Shown: piece after piece, positions 2,593-39,095 of the stretch
Numbering within the stretch: position 1 is the first letter of the stretch
Layout: every line of letters starts with the position of its first letter
Assembly: GCA_946999045.1 (NCBI GenBank)
Contig: CAMQBR010000001.1
Location: forward strand, 33,324 to 97,323
DNA from: an uncultured Prevotella sp.
Lineage (GTDB): Bacteria > Bacteroidota > Bacteroidia > Bacteroidales > Bacteroidaceae
Reading direction: 5' to 3'
Length of the DNA stretch: 64,000 bases
Made by a program: the position numbers and the translations under genes
Notes under the pieces: generated by a model
The model's database searches: none
Told to the model about the DNA's origin: nothing
What the model saw: the letters and a program-made list of their open reading frames with translations, nothing else

Positions 2593-4270
2593 ATATAAAA
2601 ATCATTATCTGTATAGTTAATATTCTCAATACCATAGCAAATGGGTAAACCATAGAATAACCTACTGAAGGAGAATCACTTTGTGTCATATCATTAACAT
2701 ATGCCAATGCAGGGGGATTGGTGTTGGCACCTGCCAATACACCCATCAACGTAAAATAGTTAATGTGAAATACGTATTTACCAATAATACCACCAATAAG
2801 TATTGGTATCATTGTAATGCCCAAACCGTACAATATCCATTGTATACCCGATTGAGATACAATGGTTTGCACAAAGTCGGCACCCGTTCCTAAGCCAATA
2901 CATGCTAGAAATATACACAAACCTATGCGACGTAACATAAGGTTGGCACTAATAGTGTTATACGTAACCAAATTGTATTTAGGACCGAAATAACCTATTA
3001 AGATAGCCACTATTAATGGACCACCTGTCAAACCTAAACGCAAGCTCTCTGATATACCTGGTATAAAGAATGGTACATTGGCCAAAATACATCCTAAAAC
3101 TATACCTAAAAAGATAGGAATAAGGTTAGGATCATTCAAACGCTTCATAGAATTGCCTAATAACTCTTCAAGTCTGCTAATAGCTAACTCATTACCAACT
3201 ACCGTAACCTTATCACCCATTTGCAATTTAAGATGGGACGTAGCAACCAAATCAATGCCCGAGCGGTTAACTCGAGTAACATTAGCACCCAACCTACTAC
3301 GTATCTTCATTTGCGCCAGTGTCTTACCATTCACCTCCGACTTGGTGATAAGTATACGGCGAGATACTAGTTGTGAACTTATTCCCTTCCAGTTCATATC
3401 TACCTTCTCGCCTAATAACGCACAAATAGGGTCTTGGTCAATTGGCTTACAAACTATCAACAGTACATCTCCACAGTTGATAAGCGTATCATCATCTATA
3501 ATTTCTTGTGTTTCGCTATTGCTTTTATGGATACGCGAAATCATAAATTCGCGCTTTAACAAATCGCTAATATGCTTAGATGTAACTCCGTTAACTCGCT
3601 CATTGGTAACTTTTACCGACAAACTATTAAGGGTAATATCCTCCAAATGCCCAATTCCTCCTTCTGCATCTACCTCTTCTTTTTTCAAGTCAATACGTAA
3701 AATCCATTTCAAAAGGAAGAATGACAATATAACACCTATCACGCCCAAGGGGTAGGTTACGGCATACCCACTGGCAATTGTAGGCGCATCCACATGTCGC
3801 AAGTCGCTGAATGCCTGCTGTGCGGTACCTAATCCTGGGGTATTGGTAACAGATCCAGATAAAATACCAGCAATAGTAGTTATTGACGTATCCGATAAGT
3901 AAAATATAGAAATAGCACCAGCTAAGCTAATAGCTATAACAATAGCCACTAAACCAATGAGAGTGTTACTACCTTTTCTGAAAGATGAAAAGAAACCCGG
4001 ACCCACTTCTAAGCCTATAGAATAGACAAAGAGTATCAACCCAAATTCCTTTAGAAAGTGCAGCAAGTTCTGATCTAAGTTTAGTTTGTAATGTCCAAAG
4101 ACTAAACCCGCAAACAATATCCACGCTAAACCTAATGATACTCCTCGCACTTTAATCTTTCCCAACATTAAACCTAAGGTTATAACCAAAGCTAAAATCA
4201 TAACGGAGTGTGCCACACCTCCGCCCCAAAGATTAGGGAACCCCTTAAAAAGACCCTCTATAATATCCAT
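2585..4270 (-). CDS. Aspartate:alanine antiporter / YidE-YbjL family transporter with two TrkA-C (RCK_C) domains
   Basis: 561 aa. Duplicated membrane domains separated by two soluble TrkA-C-like domains (…VLLIVCKP…, …KVTVVGNELAISRLEELLG…). Typical AspT/YidE architecture. Confidence 0.75.
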   Translation of the reverse strand: MDIIEGLFKGFPNLWGGGVAHSVMILALVITLGLMLGKIKVRGVSLGLAWILFAGLVFGHYKLNLDQNLLHFLKEFGLILFVYSIGLEVGPGFFSSFRKGSNTLIGLVAIVIAISLAGAISIFYLSDTSITTIAGILSGSVTNTPGLGTAQQAFSDLRHVDAPTIASGYAVTYPLGVIGVILSFFLLKWILRIDLKKEEVDAEGGIGHLEDITLNSLSVKVTNERVNGVTSKHISDLLKREFMISRIHKSNSETQEIIDDDTLINCGDVLLIVCKPIDQDPICALLGEKVDMNWKGISSQLVSRRILITKSEVNGKTLAQMKIRSRLGANVTRVNRSGIDLVATSHLKLQMGDKVTVVGNELAISRLEELLGNSMKRLNDPNLIPIFLGIVLGCILANVPFFIPGISESLRLGLTGGPLIVAILIGYFGPKYNLVTYNTISANLMLRRIGLCIFLACIGLGTGADFVQTIVSQSGIQWILYGLGITMIPILIGGIIGKYVFHINYFTLMGVLAGANTNPPALAYVNDMTQSDSPSVGYSMVYPFAMVLRILTIQIMIFIYG

Positions 4271-4498
4271 GATTGTACACTGTAAAATTCGCTTACAAAG
4301 TTATCGAAAATACTAAAAACAATCAAGTTTTTGCTATAAATAATCATGATAATAGTTAACTTTATCACTAATGTCTATAGGTAAATTCAATAACTGGTAT
4401 AGAAAAAGCAGAATATAGAGGAGGAATCCATAAAAATAGATTAGCAGTATAAAGACGCACGACTTGTATATATGCATTTTTTCATTAAAATAATATTT

Positions 4499-4691
4499 GG
4501 GCGGTTCTATAAATTACCACCGTAAAGTTTTTTATATCAGTTTTTTTACGTTTTTTCATCTTGTGGACTTTTTTTTGTTCAATTTGCTTGTTCGTTCAGT
4601 CTCGTATAGCTCACTATACTCCTTCACTCACAAACAAAGTGATCTCAAAAATAGCCTCACCATTTGTCAAAGCTAATTTATAGAACCGCCC
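4499..4691 (+). mobile_element. MITE-like element copy 1 (family 1), 193 bp, 18-bp TIRs, TSD ATTT
   Basis: GGGCGGTTCTATAAATTACCACCGTAAAG…GTCAAAGCTAATTTATAGAACCGCCC. Internal palindrome AGTATAGCnnGCTATACT. Flanked by ATTT on both sides. 227 bp upstream of the aspT start. Confidence 0.8.
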
Positions 4692-5200
4692 ATTTGTTTT
4701 TGTGCTGACGTTCAACCAAGCATCCTACCTTTAGCTTGAGATACAAATAAGCATTATTTTTTATGAAAAATATTTACTTACCCTTTCAATACTTGCGTAT
4801 TTGTCAGCAACAGCATTATTGCCCACAAATACAAGAATTTTGCACATTATTCATTATCAAAGAGTTATATTTTTTTATCTATTTTTTATTTCATAAAAAG
4901 CATACATTAGTCTTACTAACTCCATGCTTTAGGATGGTAAACTGTATGTAATTTCCAAGCTATTTCATGCAAATATCACCATTAACTCAATGCTTTAGTA
5001 AAAAAAAGTAACGCAACTGTCATTTTTACTCGTATTATCTACCTTCTTTTATTGCTTTTATTTTCCAGATTGAAAGTATATAAATTATCATTTTTCTTTA
5101 CATTCTTTATTTGCAATTTTTCTCGAAATTAGCTGTTATTATGCTTGAAGACTACTCTATATATTACAAATAATGTATGCTGTTGGCTCACCTAAAAAAA

Positions 5201-5228
5201 TCTGCGAAATTTGCGAAATCTGCGAGAA
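5201..5228 (+). repeat. Short tandem TGCGAAAT repeat (2.7 copies) in oxyR upstream region
   Basis: TCTGCGAAATTTGCGAAATCTGCGAG, about 125 bp upstream of the oxyR ATG. Confidence 0.4.
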
Positions 5229-5350
5229 AAATAATACTTCATAAGAAAATATATCACTGAAACACAATATCATTTAACCTATATTACGCATTTCATATTG
5301 TGGCTTTTATTGAAAATATGTACCTTTGTATAAATTAATAAGACACTACT

Positions 5351-6277
5351 ATGACTTTACAACAGCTTGAATATATGATGGCAGTGTACAGATTAAGGCA
5401 CTTTGCTAAAGCAGCCGACTATTGCCATGTTACACAACCAACACTTAGCTCAATGATTCAGAAATTAGAAGACGAATTAGGTGTTAAAATATTTGACCGC
5501 AAGAAACAACCTATTGGGGTTACTTCGGTGGGCGAAGCCATTATAGAACAAGGTTGGAAAGTATTGGTAAATGCTCATAAGGTTACTGAGGTAGTAAAAG
5601 AGGAGAAGCATTCTATTAGCGGAACATTCCGTATTGGCATTCTGCCAACCATTGCTCCGTATCTTATTCCAAGGTTTTTTCCACAACTCATGAATGAGTT
5701 TCCAGATATGGATGTACGTATCGTGGAAATGAAAACCAATGAGATACGTCAGGCGTTGCAGAGAGGTGATATAGATATGGGCATTGTTGCCGACCTTTGC
5801 GACATGGATGAGTTTGACAAGCAGACATTGTTTTTTGAACAGTTCTTTGCATACGTTGCCAAAAACGATCCGCTCTATCAAAAGAACAATGTAAAGATAA
5901 GTGATTTGGTTGGCGAATTTTTATGGTTGTTGGATGAGGGACATTGCTTTAGAGACCAATTGGTGAAGTACTGCCAACTAAAGGCTGCCAACACTAGCAA
6001 GAAGGCTTATAGCTTAGGAAGTATTGAGACCTTTATGCGCATAGTAGAAAGTGGAAAGGGTGTTACCTTTATTCCAGAATTGGCAGTGTATCAGTTAAAC
6101 GACAGTCAAAAAAAACTTGTAAAGCCATTTGCCATTCCTGTTCCTACTCGCGAAATTGTAATGATAACACAAAAGGATTTTATCCGTCATCGGCTTCGCC
6201 AGTTATTAGTAGATCGTATAAGAGCCAGCATACCCAAAGAGTTGCTAACATTGAGCAAGATGCAAAGGGCTATATGA
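5351..6277 (+). CDS. oxyR: Hydrogen-peroxide-inducible genes activator OxyR (LysR family)
   Basis: CHVTQPTLSSMIQKLEDELGV HTH closely matches E. coli OxyR. Redox-cysteine pair conserved with exact spacing (GHCFRDQLVKYC vs GHCLRDQAMGFC). Confidence 0.85.
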   Translation: MTLQQLEYMMAVYRLRHFAKAADYCHVTQPTLSSMIQKLEDELGVKIFDRKKQPIGVTSVGEAIIEQGWKVLVNAHKVTEVVKEEKHSISGTFRIGILPTIAPYLIPRFFPQLMNEFPDMDVRIVEMKTNEIRQALQRGDIDMGIVADLCDMDEFDKQTLFFEQFFAYVAKNDPLYQKNNVKISDLVGEFLWLLDEGHCFRDQLVKYCQLKAANTSKKAYSLGSIETFMRIVESGKGVTFIPELAVYQLNDSQKKLVKPFAIPVPTREIVMITQKDFIRHRLRQLLVDRIRASIPKELLTLSKMQRAI

Positions 6278-6318
6278 GCCTTTTATAGCTCAAAAATAAA
6301 TCAAAAAAATCTAAAAAA

Positions 6319-6338
6319 GTTAATTTATAGAACCTACC
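6319..6338. repeat. Solo terminal repeat of MITE family 1
   Basis: GTTAATTTATAGAACCTACC matches the right TIR. Immediately followed by a partial family-2 repeat (6341-6480). Confidence 0.45.
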
Positions 6339-6340
6339 TA

Positions 6341-6480
6341 TACTCTTTCGCCCCTTACAGGGGTATTAGTTTATTGAATGAAGAATTATCACCAATATTT
6401 AAGTAATAAGCCCCCTACACTATGCTATATCGTTCTTTCATAACTTGTAGTTATTTCAGCCCCTCCCTTTGGAAAAAAAT
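6341..6480. repeat. Partial family-2 repeat copy C
   Basis: CGCCCCTTACAGGGG…ATTGAATGAAGAAT…AAGCCCCCTACACTATGCTATATCG shares blocks with 961-1070 and 42240-42400. Confidence 0.35.
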
Positions 6481-6597
6481 GGGGGTAACTTATAACAATA
6501 AACAAGAGTTATGTTCACTGAGCTAACAGGTATTTGTCTGATAACTCCTATAAACTACTTATTTACTCATATTAATTCCTTGGCGTCTTTCAAAATT

Positions 6598-8868
6598 ATG
6601 AATTATGTAGATGTTGTCGTACCATTGCCATTAGAGGGTACATTTACTTATTCTGTACCAGACAACTTAATAGATAAGGTACAGTTTGGAGTACGTGTTG
6701 CTGTAACGTTCGGTACATCTAAGGTACATACTGCCATTGTAGTTTGTATACACAACGACACACCAGCCTTTAAGGTAAAAGATATTATTGCTGTTATTGA
6801 CAATACCCCTATGCTCATACAACAACAATATAAGCTGTGGCAATGGATATCATCTTATTACTTGGCATTCATCGGTGATGTTTATAATGCAGCATTGCCT
6901 GCTGGACTCAAGGTTGAAGAAAACTATAAACCACGAACCGAAACGTATATTGACCTGTGTGAGCCATATAAAAACGAACAGGCATTACACTTAGCACTCA
7001 ATTTACTGAAGCGTGCTCCCAATCAGCAAGAGGTTTTAATGAACTTCTTGCACATATCTCATTGGGAAACCATTCGTGGTGACCAATTAACTGAGCCTAT
7101 TGTGGATATTACCCGAGAGGAGTTGATGAACGTTTCGCATTGTACCTATGCCACTGTAAAACGATTAATAGAGCGAAAAATATTGCATACCTACGAACGA
7201 GAAGTGGGACGCCTCAACAATATGGGCGAAGAACATATTGAAAGAGTAAAACAACTAAACGATGCACAACAAGAAGCCTACAACCAAATTGTATTTCAGT
7301 TTCTGAAAAAGAATGTTGTTTTGTTACACGGAGTTACATCCTGTGGCAAAACAGAAATCTATATACATCTTATAAAAAAGGCACTAGAAGATAAGAAACA
7401 GGTGCTTTATTTGTTGCCAGAAATTGCATTAACGGTTCAAATAACCAGCAGGTTACGGCATGTGTTTGGCAACAAATTAGGCATTTATCACTCTAAATAC
7501 AGCGATGCCGAACGGGTGGAAATATGGAAAAAACAGTTATCCACCAACCCTTACGAGGTGATATTAGGTGTGCGAAGTGCCGTGTTCTTACCCTTTCAAC
7601 GACTCGGTTTGGTTGTGATTGACGAGGAACACGAAACCTCTTTTAAACAACAAGACCCCTCACCACGTTATCATGCTCGCTCGGTTGCCATTATGCTGGC
7701 ACAGATGTATGGGGCAAAAGCATTGTTGGGAACAGCTACTCCCTCCATGGAAAGTTACTACAATGCGAGACAGGGTAAGTATGGGTTGGTAACATTATCT
7801 ACGAGATACAAGGGTATTGAGTTGCCAAAGATAAATATTGTTGACATAAAAGACCTGCAACACCGCAAGATGATGACGGGGCCTTTCTCGCCTATACTGA
7901 TAAAGGCTATCAATGAGGCACTCAATAACAACCAACAGGTTATTTTGTTTCAAAACCGACGTGGCTTTGCACCTATGATAGAGTGCCACACTTGTGGTTG
8001 GGTTCCTAAGTGTACCCATTGTGATGTATCGCTTACCATGCACAAAACCATGAATTTACTGACGTGCCACTATTGCGGATACACGTATCAAATACCAACA
8101 GTGTGTCCGGCTTGTGGGGAAACCGACTTGCGGGGACGTGGATATGGAACTGAGAAGGTAGAGCAATATGTTAACCAATTGTTTCCACAAGCCAGAGTAG
8201 CACGTATGGATTTAGATACTACTCGTACCCGAAATGCGTACGAACGATTGATAGATGATTTTTCGTGTGGAAGAACTAACTTACTAATTGGTACACAAAT
8301 GGTTAGTAAAGGATTAGATTTTGACTGCGTGAGCGTTGTGGGAATACTTAATGCAGACTCAATGTTAAATTATCCCGACTTTCGTTCTTACGAACATGCG
8401 TTTATGATGATGGAGCAGGTAAGTGGCAGAGCAGGACGAAAAGGCAAACGTGGTACCGTATTTTTGCAAACAAAGAATAAGGATTTGCCGATTATACAAC
8501 AAGTAGTAAACAACGATTATCAAGGCTTCTTTACATCTTTGTTAGATGAGCGTAAGGCTTTTTCTTATCCTCCTTTTTATCATTTGATTTATGTTTTTTT
8601 ACGTCATCGCTACGAAAATGTAGTTGAAACTGCATCGGTAGAATTGGGTAGTAGATTGCGTCAGGGATTAAAAGAGCGCGTGTTAGGTCCTGACAAGCCT
8701 ACCATTGCTCGTATCAAGAATTTATATATTCGTAAAATTGTTATTAAATTGGAGAATGGTATCAACTTTCAGGCTGTTCGACAATATCTCCGTACCATCC
8801 AGCAACAGCTGTTGCAGGATAAGCGTTATGCCTCACTACAGGTGTATTACGATGTAGATCCGTTATAG
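6598..8868 (+). CDS. priA: Primosomal protein N' (replication restart helicase PriA)
   Basis: DEEHE (DEAH box). Cys-rich zinc fingers (CHTCGWVPKCTHCD…CHYCGY…CPACG). Helicase motifs. Start moved to MNYVDVVVPLPL (ATG 6598); the track ORF from 6511 adds an unlikely N-terminal extension. Confidence 0.9.
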   Translation: MNYVDVVVPLPLEGTFTYSVPDNLIDKVQFGVRVAVTFGTSKVHTAIVVCIHNDTPAFKVKDIIAVIDNTPMLIQQQYKLWQWISSYYLAFIGDVYNAALPAGLKVEENYKPRTETYIDLCEPYKNEQALHLALNLLKRAPNQQEVLMNFLHISHWETIRGDQLTEPIVDITREELMNVSHCTYATVKRLIERKILHTYEREVGRLNNMGEEHIERVKQLNDAQQEAYNQIVFQFLKKNVVLLHGVTSCGKTEIYIHLIKKALEDKKQVLYLLPEIALTVQITSRLRHVFGNKLGIYHSKYSDAERVEIWKKQLSTNPYEVILGVRSAVFLPFQRLGLVVIDEEHETSFKQQDPSPRYHARSVAIMLAQMYGAKALLGTATPSMESYYNARQGKYGLVTLSTRYKGIELPKINIVDIKDLQHRKMMTGPFSPILIKAINEALNNNQQVILFQNRRGFAPMIECHTCGWVPKCTHCDVSLTMHKTMNLLTCHYCGYTYQIPTVCPACGETDLRGRGYGTEKVEQYVNQLFPQARVARMDLDTTRTRNAYERLIDDFSCGRTNLLIGTQMVSKGLDFDCVSVVGILNADSMLNYPDFRSYEHAFMMMEQVSGRAGRKGKRGTVFLQTKNKDLPIIQQVVNNDYQGFFTSLLDERKAFSYPPFYHLIYVFLRHRYENVVETASVELGSRLRQGLKERVLGPDKPTIARIKNLYIRKIVIKLENGINFQAVRQYLRTIQQQLLQDKRYASLQVYYDVDPL

Positions 8869-8993
8869 ATACCTGTCCTTATTATCTTAGGGAATATTTT
8901 TGAGTTAAGGGCAGTTCTATAACTTTTATGTTGAACTTAGAGCTTTATGGTTAGCTCCCTTACTATATCACTTGCTTTTCATAGGTTGTAAGG

Positions 8994-9013
8994 ACGCACG
9001 GCTCGTGCGTCCG
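8994..9013 (+). terminator. GC-rich hairpin downstream of priA (GGACGCACG-GCTC-GTGCGTCC)
   Basis: Perfect 8-bp stem with 4-nt loop about 125 bp after the priA stop. No U-tract, which is common in Bacteroidetes. Confidence 0.35.
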
Positions 9014-9089
9014 CTCATTAATAATCATACCAACTTAAAATTCTACGAATAAATCAAATTATTTTGTACCTTTGCCTAAAATATATTTT

Positions 9090-11237: not shown

Positions 11238-11402
11238 TAAGAGTTTTTATTGTTAATAGGTTACGTATATTGGTATATAATATCATAACTATCTTATAAT
11301 AAAATAACAATATAACAACATTTTCAAAAAATATATATGTATAAGCTTGTGAGCTTTATAAGTTTGCAAATTGACGAGTTGTTATTTCTATCAGTAAAAT
11401 GA

Positions 11403-12593: not shown

Positions 12594-12712
12594 ACTCTAT
12601 TATCTTCATCATTTATAAGTGCCACAAAATTAGGAAAATAATTGCACAAGTGCGATAAGTTATGTAAAAAATATATAACTTTGCACAATCAACAAAAAAA
12701 AATCTACATTTA

Positions 12713-14416: not shown

Positions 14417-14440
14417 GAATAAGGTAAATATACCCTATAA

Positions 14441-22606: not shown

Positions 22607-22719
22607 GGGTGTTTCTATCAATTAGCTTTGACAAATTGACCTCAAAAAGAGCCCACAAGATGACAAAACGTAAAAAGACTGACATAAAAACTTTACGGTG
22701 GTAATTTATAAAACCGCCC
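22607..22719 (-). mobile_element. MITE-like element copy 2 (family 1, internally deleted, 113 bp), TSD ATTA
   Basis: GGGTGTTTCTATCAATTAGCTTTGAC…CTTTACGGTGGTAATTTATAAAACCGCCC. Lacks the central palindrome. 98 bp upstream of manC. Confidence 0.7.
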
Positions 22720-23903: not shown

Positions 23904-24089
23904 GGCAGGTTCTATAAATTATCACCATATATAGTTAGTAAATTTTACGAAATACGTTTTGTTTCCTTTTGGCTTCTTTTTATAGAAAATAGGCTACAAA
24001 TCAGATAAACTTAATTGTATTCGGTCTACACTTTTTTCGATTCAAAAATAAATTAAAAAATCTAACAAGGCTAATTTATAGAACCAACC
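23904..24089 (+). mobile_element. MITE-like element copy 3 (divergent interior, same TIR type), TSD ATAA
   Basis: GGCAGGTTCTATAAATTATCACC…AAGGCTAATTTATAGAACCAACC. Begins 4 bp after the manC stop. Confidence 0.55.
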
Positions 24090-24214
24090 ATAACATCTAA
24101 AAAAAAACTTGTACATATTTTTAACACAGATAAAACATAATCACACTAAACATTAGGTTGCATTTTTTATCTGTGGTTAGGTAATTTTGAAAAACTACAC
24201 TCCCACTTATTTAT

Positions 24215-24534
24215 TTATCAACAAAAAGTGTAGATAACTATGTTTATAACCTCTGTATAACTCACAATTTACTAACACTACCTTAAATTAACCAAACAAG
24301 AAGTAGATATCCACATAGTTATCACAGCTATTTACCTATAATATCCACAGTTTTTCAACGAAAAAAAATATCAACTTATTAACAATACCCGTATAACTCG
24401 CTCTTTGTTGATAACTATTATAAGTAACAGATACACAACAAAAAGATATTATTCCAATAGGTGTATAATAGAAAACATAAATTTAATAACTAAATAGAGA
24501 AATATTTAGATAAAAATTTATCAACATATCCACA
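24215..24534. promoter_or_regulatory. Cluster of DnaA-box-like 9-mers in AT-rich gene-free region (candidate oriC / DnaA-binding locus)
   Basis: TTATCAACA (24215), TTATCTACA rc (24229), ATATCCACA (24307), TTATCACAG (24319), ATATCCACA (24341), GTTATCAAC rc (24407), TTATCAACA (24518), ATATCCACA (24526). Six are within 1 mismatch of TTATCCACA in 320 bp. Confidence 0.35.
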
Positions 24535-24750
24535 CTATATCATCCCTCTATTGTTTTATCTCTTTTAAATTTTAAAAAGAGTAAATATATAAATAGAGTG
24601 TTGAAAAGAAGAAGAAGAATAATATTGGACATACACTTCTATTTATTGAATTTTTTTTAAGAAATAGTAGGTATTATGTTGCAACTGCTAACATTAATGA
24701 GATTACTTTTAAGTGAGCCACTCCATTTTATAAGGATACCTACCTATCAA

Positions 24751-24765
24751 ATTATAGAACCGCCC
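24751..24765. repeat. Solo MITE family-1 terminus
   Basis: ATTATAGAACCGCCC. Confidence 0.35.
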
Positions 24766-24866
24766 TATGTAAAGAATGATAATAGATATATTTTTATTAG
24801 TTTCTTCAAAAAAAATATTCCTAAAAAATATATATACTTAGATAAATATATTTATATTTGTATAAA

Positions 24867-25058
24867 GGGCGGTTCTATAGATTAGCTTTGACAGATTGTG
24901 AGACTATTTTTGAGGTCAATTTGTTTGTAAGCGAAGGAGTATAGCGAGCTATACTCCTGAACGAACAAGCAAATTGAACCAAAAAGAGTCCACAAGATGA
25001 TAAAACGTAAATAGACTGGCATAAAAAAACTTTACGGTGGTAATTTATAGAACCGCCC
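24867..25058 (-). mobile_element. MITE-like element copy 4 (family 1, 192 bp), TSD TAAA
   Basis: Reverse orientation. The ACCACCGTAAAG end lies 34 bp upstream of the 25092 ATG. Flanked by TAAA. Confidence 0.8.
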
Positions 25059-25091: not shown

Positions 25092-26255
25092 ATGAAATAT
25101 ATATATAGTAAACTTCAAACTGTTATGTTAGAGAAAAATATTCTCTTTATTCTTTATTTTTTGATTAATTTACTATTCATTATAAAATATGGCTCACGAG
25201 TAACTAACATTCCTATTCTTTTTATTGTTATCATAAGTTACTTTTTTATTGTATATATAACTTTGAAGATATGCCAACGAATAAAAAATGTTAATAGTTT
25301 ATGTTTATTATTTTTTGTTTGTATATTTTTATTTTTATGGATATTAGGGCAATATAGTATAGATCCTATGAGTATAAAAGTAGATAGGTGGTCAGCTATT
25401 CATAATTTTATAAATTATTTTTTAGATGGTAAATATCCCTATTTAGCTCAAACTCATTTAGGAGGTTATGGTTCTCCATTTCCTATTTGGCAAATATTTC
25501 ATATTCCGTTTTATTTATTAGGGAATGTAGGATTGTCTATTTTTGCTATTTTTTCTTATTTTATTTATGTACAAAAAAGAATTTTAGGTAATCAATACGC
25601 ATTAATTGTTTTATTTCTTTTTGTTCTTTCACCTGCTTTTTTATATGAAATTTTGGTAAGAAGTGATTTAGTAACAAATTTTCTTCTATTGAGCTCTTTT
25701 CTACAAATAGTTCTATATAAAGGTAAAAATTTACAGAACTCTTTTTATAGTATTGCTATTTTATGTGGATTATTTTTAAGTACTCGCTTAAGTATAGCGA
25801 TAGCTTGTATTATCTTCTTTTTTCCTTCGTATTTACAATTATCTATAAAAAGAAAGATATTGTTTCCTCTATTGGTGATAATTATTTTTTCTTTTACATT
25901 TCTACCATTTATTATTTGGAATATGGATGAATTATTTTTCTTTAAATATAATCCTTTTATATTACAAACAAGACAAGGTAGTATACTTGATGTTCTATTT
26001 ATTTGCTTAATAATATGTTATATAGTTATTAGATTAAAGGGTGATTATTTAAAAACTTTCTGTAATATAGCATATGCCTATATTTTGTTTATAGCTTTTG
26101 TAGCTATCCATCTTATAATTTCAGTTCAAAGTTATGATGTATTCTTAACGTCTTTATTTGATATAACCTATTTTGATATGTCGTTACCATTTTTAATATG
26201 TTCTTTGGGTATATATTTAGTAAAGAGAAGAATTAATAGCAAAAATATAAAATAA
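25092..26255 (+). CDS. Polytopic membrane protein, GT-C-like (DUF2029-like), very low GC
   Basis: 387 aa, at least 10 TM helices. Motif …THLGGYGSPFPIWQ… is analogous to the 11403-12593 protein. Strongly AT-biased codon usage. Confidence 0.4.
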   Translation: MKYIYSKLQTVMLEKNILFILYFLINLLFIIKYGSRVTNIPILFIVIISYFFIVYITLKICQRIKNVNSLCLLFFVCIFLFLWILGQYSIDPMSIKVDRWSAIHNFINYFLDGKYPYLAQTHLGGYGSPFPIWQIFHIPFYLLGNVGLSIFAIFSYFIYVQKRILGNQYALIVLFLFVLSPAFLYEILVRSDLVTNFLLLSSFLQIVLYKGKNLQNSFYSIAILCGLFLSTRLSIAIACIIFFFPSYLQLSIKRKILFPLLVIIIFSFTFLPFIIWNMDELFFFKYNPFILQTRQGSILDVLFICLIICYIVIRLKGDYLKTFCNIAYAYILFIAFVAIHLIISVQSYDVFLTSLFDITYFDMSLPFLICSLGIYLVKRRINSKNIK

Positions 26256-26283
26256 GCCCTGTATTTTATACTGGTATTATCTT

Positions 26284-28290: not shown

Positions 28291-28305
28291 ATCATACCAC
28301 AACGT

Positions 28306-29839: not shown

Positions 29840-32688
29840 TATTTAAGTACTATGTTTATAATTTTTTTAGGTACTACAATGGACTTTACAATAGTTTTCC
29901 CAGCTATATATTTCTTTGTGCGTGGGTCTGCCATTACCTTTTTCTGTATTTTCTCTTTAGTGTCATCTATGCTGAATACCATTTGGAAGCGAGCTTTTCC
30001 GTTAAACGAAACGGTCATCTGAATATCGCTTTCTTTTAGATATTCTTCATTGTATACAGGCCATTTAGCATTGTAAACCGAAGTTATTTCGCCCAATATA
30101 TGCCACAATTCTTCACAGATATGAGGAGCAAATGAAGCCAAAAGTACAACTACATTTTTTAATAATTCTTTATTAGTACACTTGCTTTGTGCCAATTCGT
30201 TAATGCAAATCATAAAGGCAGATACGGCTGTGTTGTATGAGAAATGTTCTATATCGGTAGTTACCTTCTTGATAAGTTTGTGTACAGACTTTAGCTGTGC
30301 AGCAGTAGGTTCTGTATCATCTGGTAAGAAACGGTTGGTTCTGTTTTCATAGAATAGTCCCCAAAGTTTCTTTAGAAAACGGTAACAACCGTCAATACCA
30401 TTGGTATCCCATGGTTTACTTGCTTCTAACGGACCTAAAAACATTTCATATAAGCGAAGTGTGTCGGCACCATATTGCTCAATAACCATATCAGGATTAA
30501 CTACATTGAACATTGATTTAGACATTTTTTCAATAGCCCAACCGCAAATATACTTGCCGTCTTCCAATATAAATTCGGCATTCTTATATTCAGGTCGCCA
30601 TGCTCTAAAGGCATCAAGGTCTAACACATCACCATGAACAATATTTACATCTACGTGAATAGGTGTAGTTTTGTATTGCTTTTTTAGTCCCAATGAAACA
30701 AAGATAGGTGCTGTTGAATGGTCTTCTGTATTGATACGATAAACAAAATTGCTTCGTCCTTGTATCATTCCTTGGTTAACCAACTTTTCAAATGGTTCTT
30801 CTTTGTACGAATATCCGTAATCATGTAAGAACTTATTCCAAAATCTTGAATAAATCAAGTGTCCAGTTGCATGTTCTGTTCCACCAACATACAGGTCTAC
30901 ATTTTGCCAATAAGCTGCTACATCTTTATCAACCAATGCCTTATCATTATGCGGATCCATATACCGAAGATAGTAAGCTGAACTACCAGCAAAGCCTGGC
31001 ATGGTGTTTAATTCCAATGGGAAGATAGTGGTATTGTTGATAAGCGACTTATCTACTACCTCTTTTTTTTCAGTATTCCATGCCCATTTCTTAGCACGCC
31101 CCAATGGAGGTTCACCTGTTTTAGTTGGTTCATATTTGTCTATCTCTGGCAATTGTAGTGGCAAACACTCTTCTGGAATCATATACGGAATATTACCTTT
31201 ATAATATACAGGGAAGGGTTCGCCCCAATAACGTTGGCGAGAGAAGGTAGCATCACGCAGACGATAGTTAATCTTTACATGACCTAAGCCTTGCTCGGTA
31301 ATATATTTTTTTGTGGCAGCAATTGCCTCTTTTACAGATAATCCATTGAGAGAAAATGTTGTGTGCTTTCCATTAACTGGACTATTTGTTACAATTCCTT
31401 CCTTGGCGTCATAACTTTCTTCGCTTACATCAGCTCCCTCTATCAGTGGAATAATAGGTAAGTTAAAGTGTTTAGCAAAAGCATAATCTCTGCTGTCGTG
31501 TGCAGGAACAGCCATGATAGCTCCTGTTCCGTAGCCTGCTAATACATAATCGCTTACATAGATAGGTATTTTATCACCAGTTACTGGATTAACAGCATAG
31601 CTACCCGTAAATACTCCCGATACTTTTCTGTCAGAAATACGCTCACGTTCAGTACGTTTCTTAGTTGCATCTACATAAGCTTTTACCTCGTTTGTTTGCT
31701 CTGGAGTAGTAACTTGAGCTACATAATCGCTCTCTGGAGCCAAAACCATGAAGGTAACACCAAACATAGTATCAGCACGTGTGGTAAAAATAGTAAGTTC
31801 TACATCAGAATTAGCCAGCTTAAATTTAACTTCAGCACCTTCCGAACGGCCAATCCAGTTGCGTTGTGTCTCCTTTAAAGAGTCAGTCCATTGTACAGTA
31901 TCTAATCCGTCTAACAAGCGTTGAGCGTATGCCGATACACGCAAACACCACTGGCGCATTTTCTTTTGTACAACAGGGTAGCCACCACGTTCGCTCACAC
32001 CGTCAACTACTTCATCGTTTGCCAATACAGTACCCAAGCCAGCACACCAGTTAACCATTGTTTCGCCCAAATAAGCAATGCGATAATTCATTAATGTTTT
32101 TTGTTGTTGCTCATCGCTCATGGTTTTCCATTCATCTGCTGTAAGCGATAGTTCTTCGCTTTGGGCTACGTTGATATCTTTAGAACCTTTACTCTCAAAA
32201 TGCTCTATCAGTTTTGTTATAGGTTGTGCTTTCTGTAAAGTGTTGTCGTAATACGAGTTAAACATTTTTATAAATGCCCACTGTGTCCAGTGATAATAAA
32301 TAGGGTCGCAGGTTCTTATCTCTCTGTCCCAGTCGAATGAGAATCCTATTTTATCTAACTGTTTGCGATAATGCTTGATGTTGGCTTCTGTAGTTATAGC
32401 AGGGTGTTGCCCTGTCTGAATAGCATATTGTTCGGCAGGTAGTCCGTAAGCATCATACCCCATAGGATTTAATACATTAAATCCTTGTTGATGTTTATAT
32501 CTTGCGTAAATATCGCTGGCAATATATCCCAAAGGATGTCCAACGTGCAAGCCTGCTCCCGATGGATAAGGGAACATATTGAGTACATAAAATTTTTCTT
32601 TATTTTTGTCTTCTACTACCTTGTAGATTTTGTTGTTTACCCACTCGTTTTGCCATTTTTTTTCAATGTCTTTGAAATTGTATTCCAT
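29839..32688 (-). CDS. leuS: Leucyl-tRNA synthetase
   Basis: HVGHPLGY (HIGH), KMSKS, CP1 editing domain. 949 aa. Confidence 0.95.
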
Positions 32689-32897
32689 ACGATATTTAAT
32701 ATTTATGTCTGTACAATAATTCTATGTAAATTATAGTTAAAAGCAAAGTTACGAAAAAAAGTGTAATATAGATTGAATAAAAAATGATTTTTATGAAAAT
32801 GTGCAAACTTTATATTTTACTTTGAATTTTATGATTAAACAGCGTAAGGAGTTAAGCCTTTTAGTTATGTACTTTAAACATTGAGCTTTATGATTAT

Positions 32898-33089
32898 GGG
32901 TGTTCTATAAATTATACCACCGTAAAGTTTTTATGTCGGTCTTTTTACGTTTTGTTATCTTGTGGGCTCTTTTGGGTTCAATTTGCTTGTTCGTTCAGTA
33001 GTATAGCTCGCTATACTTTTTCACTCACAAACAAATTGATCCCAAAAAATACTCTCACAATTTGTCAAAGCTAATTTATAGAACCGCCC
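32898..33089 (+). mobile_element. MITE-like element copy 5 (family 1, 192 bp), TSD TTAT
   Basis: GGGTGTTCTATAAATTATACCACCGTAAAG…CTAATTTATAGAACCGCCC. 209 bp upstream of the leuS start. Confidence 0.8.
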
Positions 33090-33255
33090 TTATACATTTT
33101 ACTAAAAAGCTAACAACTTGTAAAGTTATATATAAAAAAATGTTGTTATATTTTTTCATTTTTATTTATAATCAATGAGTTATACTATTATTAAAAACAT
33201 TTTTATGTAGTCATATATTATTATTTTTTTTTCTATTTTATGGGACGCAACAATC

Positions 33256-33343
33256 TCATTGAGTTTGCAGCATAAAACCATTGAGTTTGCCCGTCAAAAT
33301 CATTGAGATTGTGCTTCAAAACCATTGAGATTGTATTTTTCAC
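33256..33343 (+). repeat. Four-unit direct repeat with exact 22-bp phasing (core CATTGAGWTTG)
   Basis: Units begin at 33256, 33278, 33300 and 33322: CATTGAGTTTGCAGCATAAAAC / CATTGAGTTTGCCCGTCAAAAT / CATTGAGATTGTGCTTCAAAAC / CATTGAGATTGTATTTTTCAC. Confidence 0.7.
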
Positions 33344-33369
33344 CTCAAGCTCTTATAGATGTAAAAAAT

Positions 33370-35049
33370 CTATTTAATAATGTTTTCAAAAATATTAGGA
33401 TAGTTTTGAATGGTGATAGATTTGCCCGAAATAGGATGAATAAATGTGATAGAGGCGGCATGTAAGTACAGCCGTTGGGCAGGAGAGCCGTAAAGTTCGT
33501 CGCCAATAATGGGAGAGTTTAAACCGTCTACATGAGCACAATGTATGCGTAATTGGTGGGTACGCCCCGTTTTTGGAAACAAAGAGATGTAGGTTTTGCC
33601 ATGTTTTACTTGCTGTACATGGTAGAAAGTAATGGTTCGTTTTCCATTGAGCTTATCTACTATTTGTCGGGGGCGGTCTAATAAATCGGGAGATAAGGGC
33701 AAATCAATCATGCCTTCTCGTTGCGTTACCTCTCCTTGCAATACCGCTACATATTGTTTTTGAATGGTGTGTTTTGCAAATTGTTGTTGTAAATGATGAT
33801 ACGTTTCTTTATTTTTTGCCAGTAATAGAATGCCCGAAGTAGCCATATCCAGGCGATGTACGGCATATAACTGAGTATTTTTTGGTAGCCAAGACTGGAT
33901 GATTGAATATACAGAGGGTTGATTGTTTTTGCCAGGTACCGATAGTAAACCCGAAGGTTTGTTTACTGCAATAAGGTTATTGTCTTCGTATAAGATAGTT
34001 GGTTTCAACGAATAATTTGTTTGTTTTATTTCTTTATCTACTGTTAATCCTTGTAACATAAAAGATAAGATGGGTAAACACTTACCCCGACAGGCAGGAT
34101 AATAGTTGCCATGGTGGCGAATAGTAGTAGCTGGTGAGGCTCCCCACCAAAACTCTGCCATACATATAGGTTGCAAATGGTGCAGAAAAGCGTATTGCAA
34201 TAGCTTTGGGGCACAGCACTCTCCTGCACCAGCTGGAGGTATAACTTGTGGGGTGGGCTCAAAAATTTCTAATAAATTGCGTTGTTCACCTTTGGCATTG
34301 AGTATAATAAAGTGTGAAAAGAGCCAGCGTTGCAACTGGTCGGATAGCTGCTTGCGCCTTATTTTATAATCTGTAATGGTTTGCTCATAGTTTTTTAGTT
34401 GAGTGCTAATGCTTTCTATATTCTTGTTAATGCGCTTCTTTAAGCGATGAAGTTCAGCTTTCATAAACTGACTTTCGTTGGTTAATTGAGCCAGCTGTTT
34501 GGGTGTAAGTATTTGTGTTTGCCGTAATTCATTGCGCTTTTTCTTGGCAACTTTTATCTCGTTTTTATACGCATTTAGTGCTTTTTCTCCTGCTAATACT
34601 TTTTCTTGCAATTGTTGTTTCAATAGACAATAGTTAGTATTATTTTGTAAGTTATCAATATCCTTATTTAGTTGTGTGATAATAGCCTCGTGCTGTTTAA
34701 AATATCCATTGGGTTGTAAATAATCGAAAATAGTTGGAACAAACCCTTCCCAATCGTTTCTCCCCTCAATTTGTCCAGAATAAGCACAAAGATAACCTAA
34801 GCCCAGTTGAGCATGTTCTACTACCAATACCCCAAACATCTTGCCTTGTTCTACCTCATGTTGCCATGCTTGCCAAACTTGTATGAAGTATTGTACTTGC
34901 TTCATTGCCAACAAACAAAGCGGATGCGGATGGTAATGAAAGGGATTATTCATCTGTATAGGCTTTTGGATGTTGGTGTGCAAAGGATGAAACCTATTTG
35001 AGAGAAAGGCTTTCAGGTTTATTTTATATTCGTGTTGTTGTGATTGCAT
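33370..35049 (-). CDS. RluA-family pseudouridine synthase with long N-terminal coiled-coil extension
   Basis: C-terminal …LIAVNKPSGLLSVPGKN…AVHRLDMATSGILLLAK… is the RluA catalytic core (HRLD). About 300 aa N-terminal region is rich in heptad-like K/E/Q. Confidence 0.7.
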   Translation of the reverse strand: MQSQQHEYKINLKAFLSNRFHPLHTNIQKPIQMNNPFHYHPHPLCLLAMKQVQYFIQVWQAWQHEVEQGKMFGVLVVEHAQLGLGYLCAYSGQIEGRNDWEGFVPTIFDYLQPNGYFKQHEAIITQLNKDIDNLQNNTNYCLLKQQLQEKVLAGEKALNAYKNEIKVAKKKRNELRQTQILTPKQLAQLTNESQFMKAELHRLKKRINKNIESISTQLKNYEQTITDYKIRRKQLSDQLQRWLFSHFIILNAKGEQRNLLEIFEPTPQVIPPAGAGECCAPKLLQYAFLHHLQPICMAEFWWGASPATTIRHHGNYYPACRGKCLPILSFMLQGLTVDKEIKQTNYSLKPTILYEDNNLIAVNKPSGLLSVPGKNNQPSVYSIIQSWLPKNTQLYAVHRLDMATSGILLLAKNKETYHHLQQQFAKHTIQKQYVAVLQGEVTQREGMIDLPLSPDLLDRPRQIVDKLNGKRTITFYHVQQVKHGKTYISLFPKTGRTHQLRIHCAHVDGLNSPIIGDELYGSPAQRLYLHAASITFIHPISGKSITIQNYPNIFENIIK

Positions 35050-35071
35050 CTTCTTTTCTCTATCTTTTATA

Positions 35072-35265
35072 GGGCAGTTCTATAAATTACCACCGTAAAG
35101 TTTTTTTTATGTCAGTTTTTTTACGTTTTGTCATCTTGTGGGTTATTTTTGGTTCATTTTGCTTGTTCGTTCAGTAGTATAGCGAGCTATAACTACTTCA
35201 CTCTCAAACAAATTGACCTTAAAAATAGTATCACAATCTGTCAAAGCTAATTTATAGAATCGCCC
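35072..35265 (+). mobile_element. MITE-like element copy 6 (family 1, 194 bp)
   Basis: GGGCAGTTCTATAAATTACCACCGTAAAG…CTAATTTATAGAATCGCCC. 23 bp upstream of the RluA-like start. Flanks TATA/TACA. Confidence 0.8.
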
Positions 35266-35315
35266 TACATTGTTTTTTGAGTTTGGCACTTATATGTGAG
35301 TTATTGGTACTTAAC

Positions 35316-38300
35316 CTACATTACCTTTGTTATTTTATGTGTTGTAACATTTAGTGCTGATATTAAAATAACTGGTTTGCTGCCACGGGTATCTTCTTTT
35401 TTCCACTTAATGGTGATAACTTTGTGTGCGCCTGGCATCAAATGGAAATAATTATCGGTATAATAAACAGGTAAAATTTGTTCGCCATCACTACCTTTTA
35501 GTTGTAAACGTATCATCATGGCAGGTGTTTGGGTAGGGTTATAGAGTGTTACTTCCATCTTGTCCTTATATTCGGTAACTGACTCTTGAAGCAATACTTG
35601 AGGTAAAGAATGGAGAGCTTGCAGGTTACCCTCATCTGTAGAACAAACATAAAAGTTGGTAGATAACTCTTTGTTGTTGGCATCAAGTAGTTTCATCTGC
35701 AGATAATATACCTTTGAACTAATGTCTGGAATGGGTATATAAGTGCATACCACGGTTGTATCAGGCTTAAGATTGATAACCGATTCGTATTGTTGAACTT
35801 TTTTGCCCCACATATCCAATACCTCACATTGCGCACGCAAGTTGCCCGATATGGCTTGATTGATATTGACAACCTCCATGTTTCGAGTACTTGCATTCCA
35901 CTGTATGTGTAATGGTTCACAAGCCTTCTTTACACCAAAGAAGGCTGCAGTGGGTTCAAAATAATAGTCGTATGTTTGCCATGTCATGCTGGGCCAACAA
36001 GGATGACTCATCCATATTAGTAACCCCAAACGATATTTACTGCCACTCTCAAACATAGCGCGATATCCATTGTAGTTTATCCACTGTGATAATTGTGTAA
36101 ATTGTTGTGCACTCTCAATTTTCCCAAAAGCCTTTTGAAGCATGGCATTAAACTCACTGCCACGCTGTGCCCCTTGTAAAACGTAATCGTGCTGTCCCCA
36201 TTCTTTGCATTGCTGCCACAAAGATTGTGGCGCCAGTGTACGGGCTAAGCCCTCGTATGTCATTATGTTAGGCATACCACGCTCAGAATGTAATTTACCT
36301 GTTTGACTTTCAAAGTAAGTTTTGTCAGGAACAGCCCAATAGGGACCGTGTCCACTTACGCCATCATCTGCCGAACTGGAGATATACAATAGTCCTGGAT
36401 GTTGCGTTTTTACATCTTTCTGTAATGTATCATTTATATCTTTAGGAGGATATCCCTCGTTTCGTCCGCAGTACAAAGCAATGCTCGGATGTTGTCTGAT
36501 GCGATAAATATAATCTTTAGCATTACGTAAGAACATAGAATGATTTTGCGGATCGGGGCCATCGGCAGGGTTAGCCAACCAAAAATCTTGCCATACCATG
36601 ATGCCATAGTGGTCGCAAGCATCGTAAAATTCTTTATCACCTGTTTGTCCTACCCAGTTACGTATCATGTTACAGTTCATGTATTTATGATACTTTACAG
36701 CAATATCATATTCGCGTGCTCTGTAATTAAGGTTATTCTCACTAAATCCCCAATTTCCTCCAAGTGGCACAAATCGTTTTCCATTGATATATAAGGTAAG
36801 ACGAGTATTAACATCTTTGTAACTCATCTGTCGGATGCCTGCCCGATAATGTAGTTCGTTTTGCGTTTTTCCGTTTATTTGGAATGTATAACCTGCATCG
36901 TAAAGATAAGGCTCTCCATAGCCATTAGGCCACCACAAGTGCATGTGTTGATGCTGCAGTGAGGTATAAAGTGAAGGTAAAAATGATGTTTCTACTGTGG
37001 CATGAGCTGGTAGCATAATACTCTTTTCAAACGTGTTATTACCTATCCATCCTTTTAGTATGCCCAATATGCGGTGTGATTCGTTATTAGTGAGCAAGAC
37101 AGAAGGTGTTAGTGTAGCCAGTGTATCGGGCAAATTGAGTTGAGAAGTAACTACAGGGTCGCTTAAAGTAACGCTACCCTCTTGTGTTAGGTACACATCG
37201 TTCCATATACCAATGTTGCGCCCACGAATGGTAGAAATCCAGTCCCACCCTATTGTAGCATGAAATGTAGGATTATCTGCCCCCAAGATACCCCCATTAA
37301 AATCGGTATTAAGCTGGTTTTTTTCTTTCACTGCCCCAGGGTGTTGTGTCTTGATAATTTCTACAGCCAGCACATTTTGTCCCTCCTTTAGTAGTTGGGT
37401 AACATCTGTTTTGCTACGAATAAAAGCCCCTTCTATACGATTGATACGCTTTCCGTTAAGGAAAATATTGGCTTTCCAGTTAATGCCGTCAAAATTGAGG
37501 AATATATGTTGCTGTAATTTTTCTTTTGAAATGTTGAATGTTTTGCGATACCAAAAGTTGGAGTTGAAAAACGATTCGGACACTAAAAATAGATTGTCGG
37601 CTATATTAGGATTGGCAAGTGCACCTATATTTACATAACTTGTAAGTACGGTAGCTGGTACTGTTGCTACAATCCAGCCAGCATCATTATAGTAAGGTAG
37701 TGAGAGTTGTTCGCCAGTGGCCTGCACCTGCGATGCACGTTGCAAATGCCAGTTGCCACCATTCAGTGATAATAGGTTATTATGCCATATACTTTCTTTA
37801 GTAGCATGAGCTATTAATCCTCCTCTTCCCATTACTTCTACTTCACTTAGCACAAAAGGCTTTCCATTCTTTGAAGCTTGCATATTTACTCTGATGTAGC
37901 GAGCTTGTGCACGACAATTTATTACTTCATTGGTTTTATCTGCAGAAGAAAGTTTTGAAATGTTAGTCCAATGTACATTATCTACTGATACTTGTATTGA
38001 GCCTAGTGTAGCTTTGTTAAGCCAATGTAATTTTATTTGATTGAATGAAGCTTGTGTTCCCAAATCAATCTTCACCCATTCGTTGTGGTTTGTGGCACTC
38101 ATCCATGCACTCTTAAAGACAGCCGATGGCAATACATTGGTTACTGGAATACTGCTTTGTGCAAAGTTTATTTGTGTAACAGTCCAGTATGCTGCTCCTG
38201 GCATATCCAGTTGTAAGCGCAAACCTCGCAAAAGTGGTTCGCTATGATGTAGGTTAAACGATAAATTTACATTGCGGGTGGGCAACAATTCGGCATTAGT

Positions 38301-38882
38301 AACTTTATTAGGGTCGCTGTGTACCTTGTATTTTGAAGCTGTTCCAGGTAACGAATTGCCATGCTGTTGTGCTATTACTATCCATTTTCCGTTGCTGTTG
38401 GGTGCTAATAATTTGATAGAATAGCCTTTGTTAGCTTGCTTTTCGTAGTAAGCAACATGAGCTACTAAGCTTATTTTATTGGCTTTAACTGCCATATTCT
38501 TCCACTGATATTGCAGAAAAGCCTGATTGCCTATAAGGATGTTATGCGTATATTCGCCTCTGTCAATTGCCCATTCACGTTCTCTTCGTGGTAAAACACC
38601 TTGATTGGTGGTTACTATCATATAAGATGGCATCTTGTTAGTGATGATGCCATCGGTAACAAGTTGTGCCGTGAGGTTATAATCATAACTCGAAGAGTGG
38701 TATGTTTTGCAATGTAATGCTATATTGCGGTATGTGCTATCTATTTGTAATGTAGGTGCATAGCACTCTTTTGGGTTGCCTGGATAGATGCCAATGCCAC
38801 GGGTATAGGTTTGAGAAATAATACTATTATGCGTAAAAGTAATAATGCATAAGAATATGAGAAATGTTTTTTTTATAGTCAT
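35316..38882 (-). CDS. Secreted glycoside hydrolase, GH2-like multidomain with F5/8 type C (discoidin) domain
   Basis: Signal peptide. Discoidin-like …NEWVKIDLGTQASFNQIKLHW…. GH2-like sugar-binding/Ig/TIM segments (…GIMVWQDFWLAN…, …YCGRNEGYPP…). Confidence 0.5.
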   Translation of the reverse strand: MTIKKTFLIFLCIITFTHNSIISQTYTRGIGIYPGNPKECYAPTLQIDSTYRNIALHCKTYHSSSYDYNLTAQLVTDGIITNKMPSYMIVTTNQGVLPRREREWAIDRGEYTHNILIGNQAFLQYQWKNMAVKANKISLVAHVAYYEKQANKGYSIKLLAPNSNGKWIVIAQQHGNSLPGTASKYKVHSDPNKVTNAELLPTRNVNLSFNLHHSEPLLRGLRLQLDMPGAAYWTVTQINFAQSSIPVTNVLPSAVFKSAWMSATNHNEWVKIDLGTQASFNQIKLHWLNKATLGSIQVSVDNVHWTNISKLSSADKTNEVINCRAQARYIRVNMQASKNGKPFVLSEVEVMGRGGLIAHATKESIWHNNLLSLNGGNWHLQRASQVQATGEQLSLPYYNDAGWIVATVPATVLTSYVNIGALANPNIADNLFLVSESFFNSNFWYRKTFNISKEKLQQHIFLNFDGINWKANIFLNGKRINRIEGAFIRSKTDVTQLLKEGQNVLAVEIIKTQHPGAVKEKNQLNTDFNGGILGADNPTFHATIGWDWISTIRGRNIGIWNDVYLTQEGSVTLSDPVVTSQLNLPDTLATLTPSVLLTNNESHRILGILKGWIGNNTFEKSIMLPAHATVETSFLPSLYTSLQHQHMHLWWPNGYGEPYLYDAGYTFQINGKTQNELHYRAGIRQMSYKDVNTRLTLYINGKRFVPLGGNWGFSENNLNYRAREYDIAVKYHKYMNCNMIRNWVGQTGDKEFYDACDHYGIMVWQDFWLANPADGPDPQNHSMFLRNAKDYIYRIRQHPSIALYCGRNEGYPPKDINDTLQKDVKTQHPGLLYISSSADDGVSGHGPYWAVPDKTYFESQTGKLHSERGMPNIMTYEGLARTLAPQSLWQQCKEWGQHDYVLQGAQRGSEFNAMLQKAFGKIESAQQFTQLSQWINYNGYRAMFESGSKYRLGLLIWMSHPCWPSMTWQTYDYYFEPTAAFFGVKKACEPLHIQWNASTRNMEVVNINQAISGNLRAQCEVLDMWGKKVQQYESVINLKPDTTVVCTYIPIPDISSKVYYLQMKLLDANNKELSTNFYVCSTDEGNLQALHSLPQVLLQESVTEYKDKMEVTLYNPTQTPAMMIRLQLKGSDGEQILPVYYTDNYFHLMPGAHKVITIKWKKEDTRGSKPVILISALNVTTHKITKVM

Positions 38883-38903
38883 TAGTTTTGATGATTTGTT
38901 TAA

Positions 38904-39095
38904 GGGCGGTTCTATAAATTACCACCGTAAAGTTTTTATGTCAGTCTTTTTTTACTTTTTGTCATCTTGTGGACTCTTTTTGGTTCAATATTCTTGTTCG
39001 TTCAGTTGTATAGCTCGCTATACTCCTTCGCTCACAAACAGGTTGACCTCAAAAATAGTTTCACAATCTGTCAAAGCTAATTTATAGTACCGCCC
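38904..39095 (+). mobile_element. MITE-like element copy 7 (family 1, 192 bp), perfect 5-bp TSD TTAAG
   Basis: …TTTAAG|GGGCGGTTCTATAAATTACCACCG…ATAGTACCGCCC|TTAAGTAG…. 22 bp upstream of the glycosidase start. Confidence 0.85.

Follow-up and report, generated by a model that had tools for sequence, protein, structure and literature searches.

A family of miniature inverted-repeat elements in Prevotella with a moderate orientation bias relative to neighbouring genes

ERIC, Correia and BOX elements are described in PMC3049150 as having an orientation-dependent effect on the messenger RNAs (mRNAs) with which they are co-transcribed. Here we analyzed a family of MITEs (miniature inverted-repeat transposable elements) in Prevotella, starting from a window of 64,000 nucleotides (nt) of an uncultured Prevotella sp. 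(GenBank assembly GCA_946999045.1, contig CAMQBR010000001.1, positions 33,324 to 97,323 of the forward strand; guanine plus cytosine (GC) content 36%). A preliminary description of this window had noted that all six canonical copies of the repeat turn the same end towards an adjacent gene start, and had suggested an outward-facing promoter or operator in the element, with a -7 box at that end, or a strongly oriented, promoter-proximal insertion. This observation is real yet over-read: the polarity is a modest tendency of about 3:1 rather than a rule, and a promoter -7 box in the terminal inverted repeat (TIR) is not supported.

Among the described systems, the Correia elements of Neisseria (CREE/NEMIS) are also short, TIR-bounded intergenic MITEs that often lie directly upstream of genes. 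They are co-transcribed, they form long hairpins, and a supply of promoters and cleavage by RNase III are reported for them, as cited in PMC3049150 and PMC3488235. The two families have no sequence relation, and Correia elements duplicate TA whereas the Prevotella element duplicates a 4-bp TTAA-like site. Correia promoters are moreover demonstrated, of the sigma-70 type and located at the termini, whereas the terminus of the Prevotella element, known from sequence alone, has no match to the Bacteroidota -7 consensus. The ERIC/IRU elements of enterobacteria and yersiniae are likewise imperfect palindromic repeats and give the closest functional analogy to the explanation that we favor below. 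According to PMC3049150, they are transcribed with neighbouring genes and one orientation exposes an RNase E site. They belong to another phylum and differ in sequence, and their orientation effect has been measured, whereas an effect of the Prevotella element is suggested by a 3:1 count and by strand asymmetries. Within the Bacteroidota, the BrickBuilt MITE of Porphyromonas gingivalis has TIRs, orientation-dependent promoter activity in reporters and an internal minisatellite, which recurs in some variants of the Prevotella element; unlike the latter, it is much larger, has inconsistent target-site duplications (TSDs), and was assayed for promoter activity in E. coli (PMC4596501). Putative mobile promoters (PMC3488235) are similar in that homologous non-coding sequence stands upstream of non-homologous genes. 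That class is defined by upstream position only, whereas the Prevotella element occurs equally after stop codons and between convergent genes. Insertion sequences (ISs) of Bacteroides, for example upstream of cfiA, cepA and ermF, provide the downstream gene with an outward promoter of the TAnnTTTG type in one orientation only. These are autonomous elements with demonstrated transcription start sites (TSSs), whereas the Prevotella element is non-coding and its TAnnTTTG cores lie in poor context.

The repeat is a non-autonomous cut-and-paste transposon of a typical bacterial MITE family, because it combines TIRs, a 4-bp TSD, a lack of coding capacity and many dispersed copies. Pattern scans of species-representative genomes and metagenomes gave 138 loci besides the window, and a profile of the window copies collected 121 elements (97 short and 24 long), which flank clustering reduced to 84 independent insertions over these loci and the window. 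Most of the genome loci belong to Prevotella/Hoylesella, among them a Prevotella metagenome-assembled genome (MAG) with over 40 of them, H. timonensis, Prevotella sp. BV3P1 and others. The short form is 192-196 nt and the long form about 256 nt, the difference being a 64-nt insert with CTC(CG)TTTTT repeats at its borders. All copies have 18-nt TIRs (GGGCGGTTCTATAAATTA / TAATTTATAGAACCGCCC), and the terminus TAATTTATAGAACCGCCC, being the TIR, thus points outwards at either end. Of 62 copies, 42 have a perfect TSD and 53 a match at three or more of its four positions, against 0/62 in a shifted control; TTAA is the target consensus, and its surroundings are roughly palindromic (T at -4, A at +7). 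We call the terminus beside ACCACCGTAAAG the ACC end and the other one, …GTCAAAGC plus the TIR, the GCT end; the F strand reads from ACC to GCT and the R strand is its complement. The sole open reading frame (ORF; 49 codons, F strand) is broken or has no ATG in several copies, and a conserved peptide or upstream ORF was rejected, as run-length changes, read by eye, break the frames. Identity to the consensus is about 92% and even along the element, and in gene-proximal copies no segment is conserved above the rest. No Rfam 15 covariance model matched at the gathering threshold across the window, or at E<=1 for the copy upstream of GH2. Comparison with plasmids and viral contigs gave no useful matches, and the TIR sequence appeared in no paper of the literature searched. 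The family is therefore not described by sequence in that literature, while the kind of element is already known.

In the window, the 12-mer ACCACCGTAAAG has exactly six matches against 0.17 expected, and element boundaries were set by repeat finding and alignment. Copy 1 (4499..4691, plus strand, full length, TSD ATTT) stands between divergent genes, with its ACC end 228 nt from the ATG of an aspT-like gene (4270) and its GCT end about 660 nt from the ATG of lysR (5351). The spacer of copy 2 (22607..22719, minus strand, TSD ATTA), a 113-nt copy whose central ~80 nt are deleted, is also divergent: 98 nt separate the ACC end from the manC-like ATG (22818), and on the other side an ABC transporter ATG (22442) is 164 nt from the GCT end. 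The ACC end of copy 3 (24867..25058, minus strand, TSD TAAA) is 33 nt from an ATG at 25092, and that of copy 4 (32898..33089, plus strand, TSD TTAT) is 209 nt from the leuS ATG (32688). Copy 5 (35072..35265, plus strand, TSD TATA/TACA) is 49 nt from the GH2 stop on one side and 22 nt from the ATG of an RluA-like gene on the other; it is probably at an operon junction, since the pre-insertion spacer was short (~67 nt) and had no -7 box. The ACC end of copy 6 (38904..39095, plus strand, TSD TTAA) is 21 nt from the GH2 ATG (38882), and the intrinsic terminator of the kdtA-like gene (39152..39185, minus strand) is upstream of this copy. Pfam assigned the neighbouring genes to an AspT-type permease, LeuRS, a pseudouridine synthase, GH2 and an NTP-transferase, and the GH2 and RluA start codons match independent gene calls in other assemblies.

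These gaps agree within 1 nt with the distances given earlier, and the shared polarity and the identities of the adjacent genes, fitted by Pfam, are real. The count of six out of six is nevertheless less telling than it seemed. All six copies do share the polarity, but copies 1 and 2 lie in divergent spacers where the GCT ends face gene starts as well, so that just four copies are informative, and four out of four corresponds to p=0.125. A related copy at 23904-24089, described below, also has the reverse polarity. For the wider set, gene calling was crude and took greedy longest ORFs with a minimum of 90 aa. Events between co-directional genes, with the window included, number 33 in which the downstream start is faced by the ACC end ('anti') and 10 in which it is faced by the GCT end ('same'). 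With the window left out, the ratio is 29:10 (p=0.0034), which bears out an orientation preference beyond the window, and after merging events with common neighbouring proteins it is 24:8 (p=0.007). The 'anti' share was 64-79% under every ORF-length and distance filter, while under strict filters the non-window counts were not significant (e.g. 9:5 and 8:3). The bias is present in both forms (short 22:8, long 7:2). At distances of 60 nt or less, ACC ends face 14 starts and 9 stops and GCT ends 5 starts and 20 stops (p=0.007); in all contexts together, 46 gene starts are faced by ACC ends and 19 by GCT ends. ACC ends are also about twofold enriched 12-25 nt from the ATG (9/46 against a 10% null, p=0.04). 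The earlier statement that every copy has the same polarity thus holds as a bias: about one quarter of the informative copies are reversed, and nine events lie between convergent genes.

Two simple causes of the orientation were rejected. A link to replication was not found, as, among copy pairs within a locus, 11 have one absolute orientation in common and 12 have opposite ones; the window copies follow local gene direction and not the replichore. An asymmetric target motif that would orient the insertion was rejected as well, because the target logo is roughly palindromic.

About 85% of intergenic spacers include a gene start, so a position upstream of a start codon is near expectation. The split of events over tandem, divergent and convergent spacers (43/8/9) fits the expectation from spacer number, length or TWWA content (p=0.15-0.76), and the strong promoter-proximal preference suggested earlier is not supported. 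Insertion into AT-rich intergenic DNA is proportional to the space available. Many insertions nonetheless appear to lie inside transcription units, either in putative 5' untranslated regions (5'UTRs), where the ATG is 15-36 nt away, or in short co-directional spacers. We grouped the tandem events by native TAnnTTTG boxes. Six events have a native box reading in upstream of the GCT end, four of them with the box 5-16 nt from the end, and all six are 'anti'; no tandem event in the disfavored orientation has an equivalent native box reading in. A native box stands between the element and the ATG in 15 events (13 'anti', 2 'same'). The remaining 22 (14 'anti', 8 'same') have no box on either side, and their spacers on the side of the upstream gene are mostly very short, that is, they are putative operon junctions.

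The two strands of the element differ in composition and in predicted folding. The F strand is pyrimidine-rich (A48 C43 G29 T71), with several U-runs after small hairpins, and a 60-nt tract of it has 19 C and 4 G. This C-rich, G-poor tract resembles a Rho-loading site in its composition, and the maximum of C minus G per 60 nt is 14.9 on F vs 3.9 on R, in 82 of 83 copies. The R strand is 60% purine, similar to the coding strands here. R-sense RNA is predicted to fold into a tight hairpin of about 190 nt without termination-type signals; the F-sense hairpin is weaker, and the R-sense fold is the more stable one by 9.5 kcal/mol (61/65 copies).

Our favored explanation, held tentatively and at somewhat less than even confidence, is that the orientation bias comes from selection on co-transcription. 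The element would frequently be part of neighbouring mRNAs, and in about three quarters of the surviving copies the gene-sense transcript would carry the R strand, which is rich in purines and runs from an upstream GCT end to a downstream ACC end. Tolerance of the element would then differ with the strand that is transcribed. The R-sense would be less disruptive because it has the tight hairpin and no Rho- or terminator-like features, whereas F-sense insertions would be more polar or destabilizing and would be lost more often. Such selection would parallel the orientation-dependent effects of the ERIC, Correia and BOX elements.

Several points weigh against this explanation. Both the co-transcription and the polarity effects are deduced from the letters of the DNA. 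Neither strand of the element has a predicted canonical intrinsic terminator, and none is conserved: there is one weak hit, in copy 4 only, and the folds have no U-tail. The C-rich tract could also be hidden within the long hairpin. Where a native promoter separates the element from the ATG, the bias is no weaker (13:2), and this class weighs against polarity because polarity should matter least there; the bias is weakest (14:8) in the operon-like spacers. Five copies in the disfavored orientation lie 6-80 nt from an ATG with no box between, so read-through in the F sense cannot be lethal. There is no depletion of convergent or divergent spacers, which fits a bias at the insertion step equally well. 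Finally, the gene calls on which the counts depend are the crude ones described above.

Promoters of the host provide a reference for the alternatives in which the element itself drives transcription. In 203 MITE-free upstream regions of the loci, TAnnTTTG occurs 20-70 nt from the ATG 67 times in the forward direction vs about 9 times in reverse, while TAnnTTTA/T/C and TAATTTAT, the terminal sequence proposed earlier as a -7 box, show no enrichment upstream of ATGs. The native logo of 70 boxes has a pyrimidine (C or T) after the G, an AT-rich upstream stretch and a TTG about 20 nt upstream, in agreement with a Bacteroidota sigma-A box at -12 to -5 (PMC9723704). Such boxes are found at several genes of the window. 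The aspT-like gene has TAACTTTG(T) (4296..4303, minus strand) 25 nt upstream of its ATG, and leuS has TAACTTTG(C) (32744..32751, minus strand) 55 nt upstream, each standing between its gene and the MITE; a canonical box likewise separates element and ATG at lysR and at the ABC transporter gene, whereas in the window none was found in that position for manC, the gene at 25092, rluA or GH2. For copy 3, a native box TATATTTG(T) (24853..24860, plus strand) is 6 nt upstream of the GCT end. The predicted TSS, from the box position of -12 to -5 (PMC9723704), falls at the element edge, and copy 3 would therefore lie wholly in the 5'UTR of the gene at 25092.

The main rival to selection on co-transcription is a sigma-A promoter inside the element, near the GCT end, that reads through and out of the ACC end; copies so oriented would add or restore transcription and hence be kept. 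We regard this as possible but doubtful. The promoter might be a relic of the transposase promoter of a parent IS. Exact conserved TAnnTTTG cores do occur on the R strand only, at two positions, and none is conserved on the F strand. Box 1, TAGCTTTG (39072..39079 in copy 6, minus strand), covers nt 17-24 from the GCT end and is kept intact by 47 of the 66 independent short copies, and box 2, TATTTTTG (39050..39057 in copy 6, minus strand), covers nt 39-46 and is intact in 31 of 66. Both point towards the ACC end, and base composition, roughly estimated, would give about 0.1 per strand. In one subfamily the sequence is TAGCTTTGT, where the G is followed by the preferred pyrimidine. An internal promoter would account for the polarity in every context class, including the 13:2 class, and would suit GH2, which comes after a terminator and has no other exact box. 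Outward promoters on Bacteroides ISs are well known. The P. gingivalis BrickBuilt MITE offers a further precedent in its reporter activity (PMC4596501).

The context of the two boxes, however, is not that of promoters. Box 1 has a median flanking-context score of -12.1 and box 2 one of -8.6, like coding-region decoys (-9.6) and unlike native promoters (+5.3). A G at the first n and an A after the G almost never occur in the 70 native boxes, and there is no -33 TTG at native spacing. The boxes are not significantly better kept in gene-proximal copies (14/15 vs 54/68). Antisense firing should deplete convergent spacers, of which 9 were observed vs 7-11 expected. A parent was also not found: a search of about 1 Mb of loci, and of viral contigs, gave no autonomous IS or transposase with the same TIRs. 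Larger TIR pairs in these loci enclose a Fic-domain ORF or unrelated ORFs.

An unlikely alternative to both is a bias at the insertion step, in which the transposase complex would integrate in a preferred orientation to local transcription without any selection. The similar size of the bias in all context classes and the undepleted convergent and divergent spacers speak for it, and a model with bias in tandem spacers only gave the best rough fit in a hand calculation. The short, roughly palindromic target (TTAA) and the symmetric TIRs offer such a complex little to orient by, and orientation is independent of the replichore. We know of no precedent for transcription-oriented integration by elements of this TIR/TSD type.

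We consider it very improbable that there is no real bias, the window count being chance and the wider counts a product of crude gene calls or non-independent copies. The four informative window copies and the loss of significance under strict filters (9:5, 8:3) would allow it, but the share stays at 64-79% under all filters, survives two levels of de-duplication and appears in short (22:8) and long (7:2) elements alike, and gene-calling errors should dilute a bias rather than create it.

The preliminary description had read TAATTTAT as a 7/8 match to TAnnTTTG, whereas it matches at four of the six specified positions (6/8 counting both n positions), with two mismatches in the critical TTTG and no final G. 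Native promoters here need TAnnTTTG with its final G, and by this standard the TIR itself is not a promoter. The proposal that the ACC-end terminus (…GGTGGTAATTTATAGAACCGCCC) drives the adjacent gene from this box is thus scarcely credible: the box end is at a plausible 25-32 nt from the ATG in close cases (native range 20-70 nt) and ACC ends are enriched at 12-25 nt as given above, but the identical 18-nt TIR faces outward at the GCT end too and cannot yield polarity, the box is not enriched upstream of genes, no site of the element scores as high as 6.5 in the promoter model, and aspT and leuS keep their own boxes.

Comparison between strains and species gives some view of the history of the insertions. 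None of the 138 loci closely matches the window, the nearest being 76% identical over leuS. Assemblies of the same species, at 99.6-100% identity, each have three MITEs between leuS and kdtA, and no empty site was found among ten same-species contigs, all of which keep the three. The MITE upstream of GH2 has the short form in the window and in one other locus (L144), and carries the 64-nt insert in five other same-species assemblies (for example L139:1890-2146). This difference is either a within-species indel inside the MITE or an assembly collapse. A MITE precedes leuS in two species, in the window (32898-33089) and in a Prevotella MAG (locus L025, 2982-3175), in the same orientation next to leuS genes that are 76% identical. 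The distance to the ATG is 209 nt in the window vs 449 nt in L025 and the TSDs differ, so that an orthologous insertion was rejected and the two arose independently. The promoter region of leuS is itself conserved in L025. The MITE family fragments short-read assemblies. Many assemblies of the source species (L146-L148, 2.0-kb contigs) end 50-60 nt either side of the RluA-like gene, at the flanking MITEs.

Other related sequences were noted in the window and the wider set. A related MITE, of a sister or long-form-like type (23904..24089, plus strand, TSD ATAA), has its ACC-like end 3 nt past the manC stop, and its polarity is opposite to that of the six canonical copies. The diverged sister subfamily, of which this is a full copy, has the TIR core GGTTCTATAAATTA in common, and solo-end fragments lie at 6280-6338, 24748-24761, 42578-42618 and 54843-54875. 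At another locus (L018, 1555-2873), a solo ACC-type TIR immediately follows the stop codon of a Fic-domain ORF of 281 aa (motif HPWVDGNGRMSR), on whose other side lie a long-form and then a short-form MITE; the arrangement may be a TIR-bounded cargo cassette. Two variants with the same TIRs have their interior replaced by an 11-nt minisatellite of GGGACTAGGTG-like units (L150, 1621-1793 and 8913-9049), on a contig of Prevotella sp. S7-1-8 that is also in IMG/VR.

Two features near the copies stand apart from the family. A 22-nt tandem repeat of 3.5 copies (consensus CATTGAGATTGCGCATCAAAAC, 33257-33333) lies between the RluA-like stop and the MITE upstream of leuS. Inside the 1-kb spacer 24090-24866, seven DnaA-box-like 9-mers (TTATCCACA, at most one mismatch) are found in the 320 nt of 24215-24534, against a background of about 0.14 per 320 nt. 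The region is very AT-rich (27% GC), and the cumulative GC skew has its minimum near this cluster, at about 28 kb. It may be the chromosomal origin (oriC), with one MITE on each side.

As the evidence stands, this is one more MITE family with a moderate orientation bias in a well-populated class. A bolder possibility, to which we give rather low credence, is that the element serves as a mobile directional expression cassette of Prevotella. Either a promoter reading from GCT to ACC or a processing hairpin giving a defined short 5'UTR would have been recruited repeatedly 15-22 nt upstream of starts, and independently upstream of leuS in two species, rewiring housekeeping and glycan-degradation genes. 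Since the family varies between strains, as in the 64-nt indel, it may also serve as a strain marker. Prevotella is an abundant group of the human microbiota that is genetically poorly tractable, and its promoter evolution has been little studied. If the bias is functional, through promoter supply or through orientation-dependent mRNA processing or polarity, the MITE would be a natural experiment on how mobile DNA reshapes expression in Prevotella.

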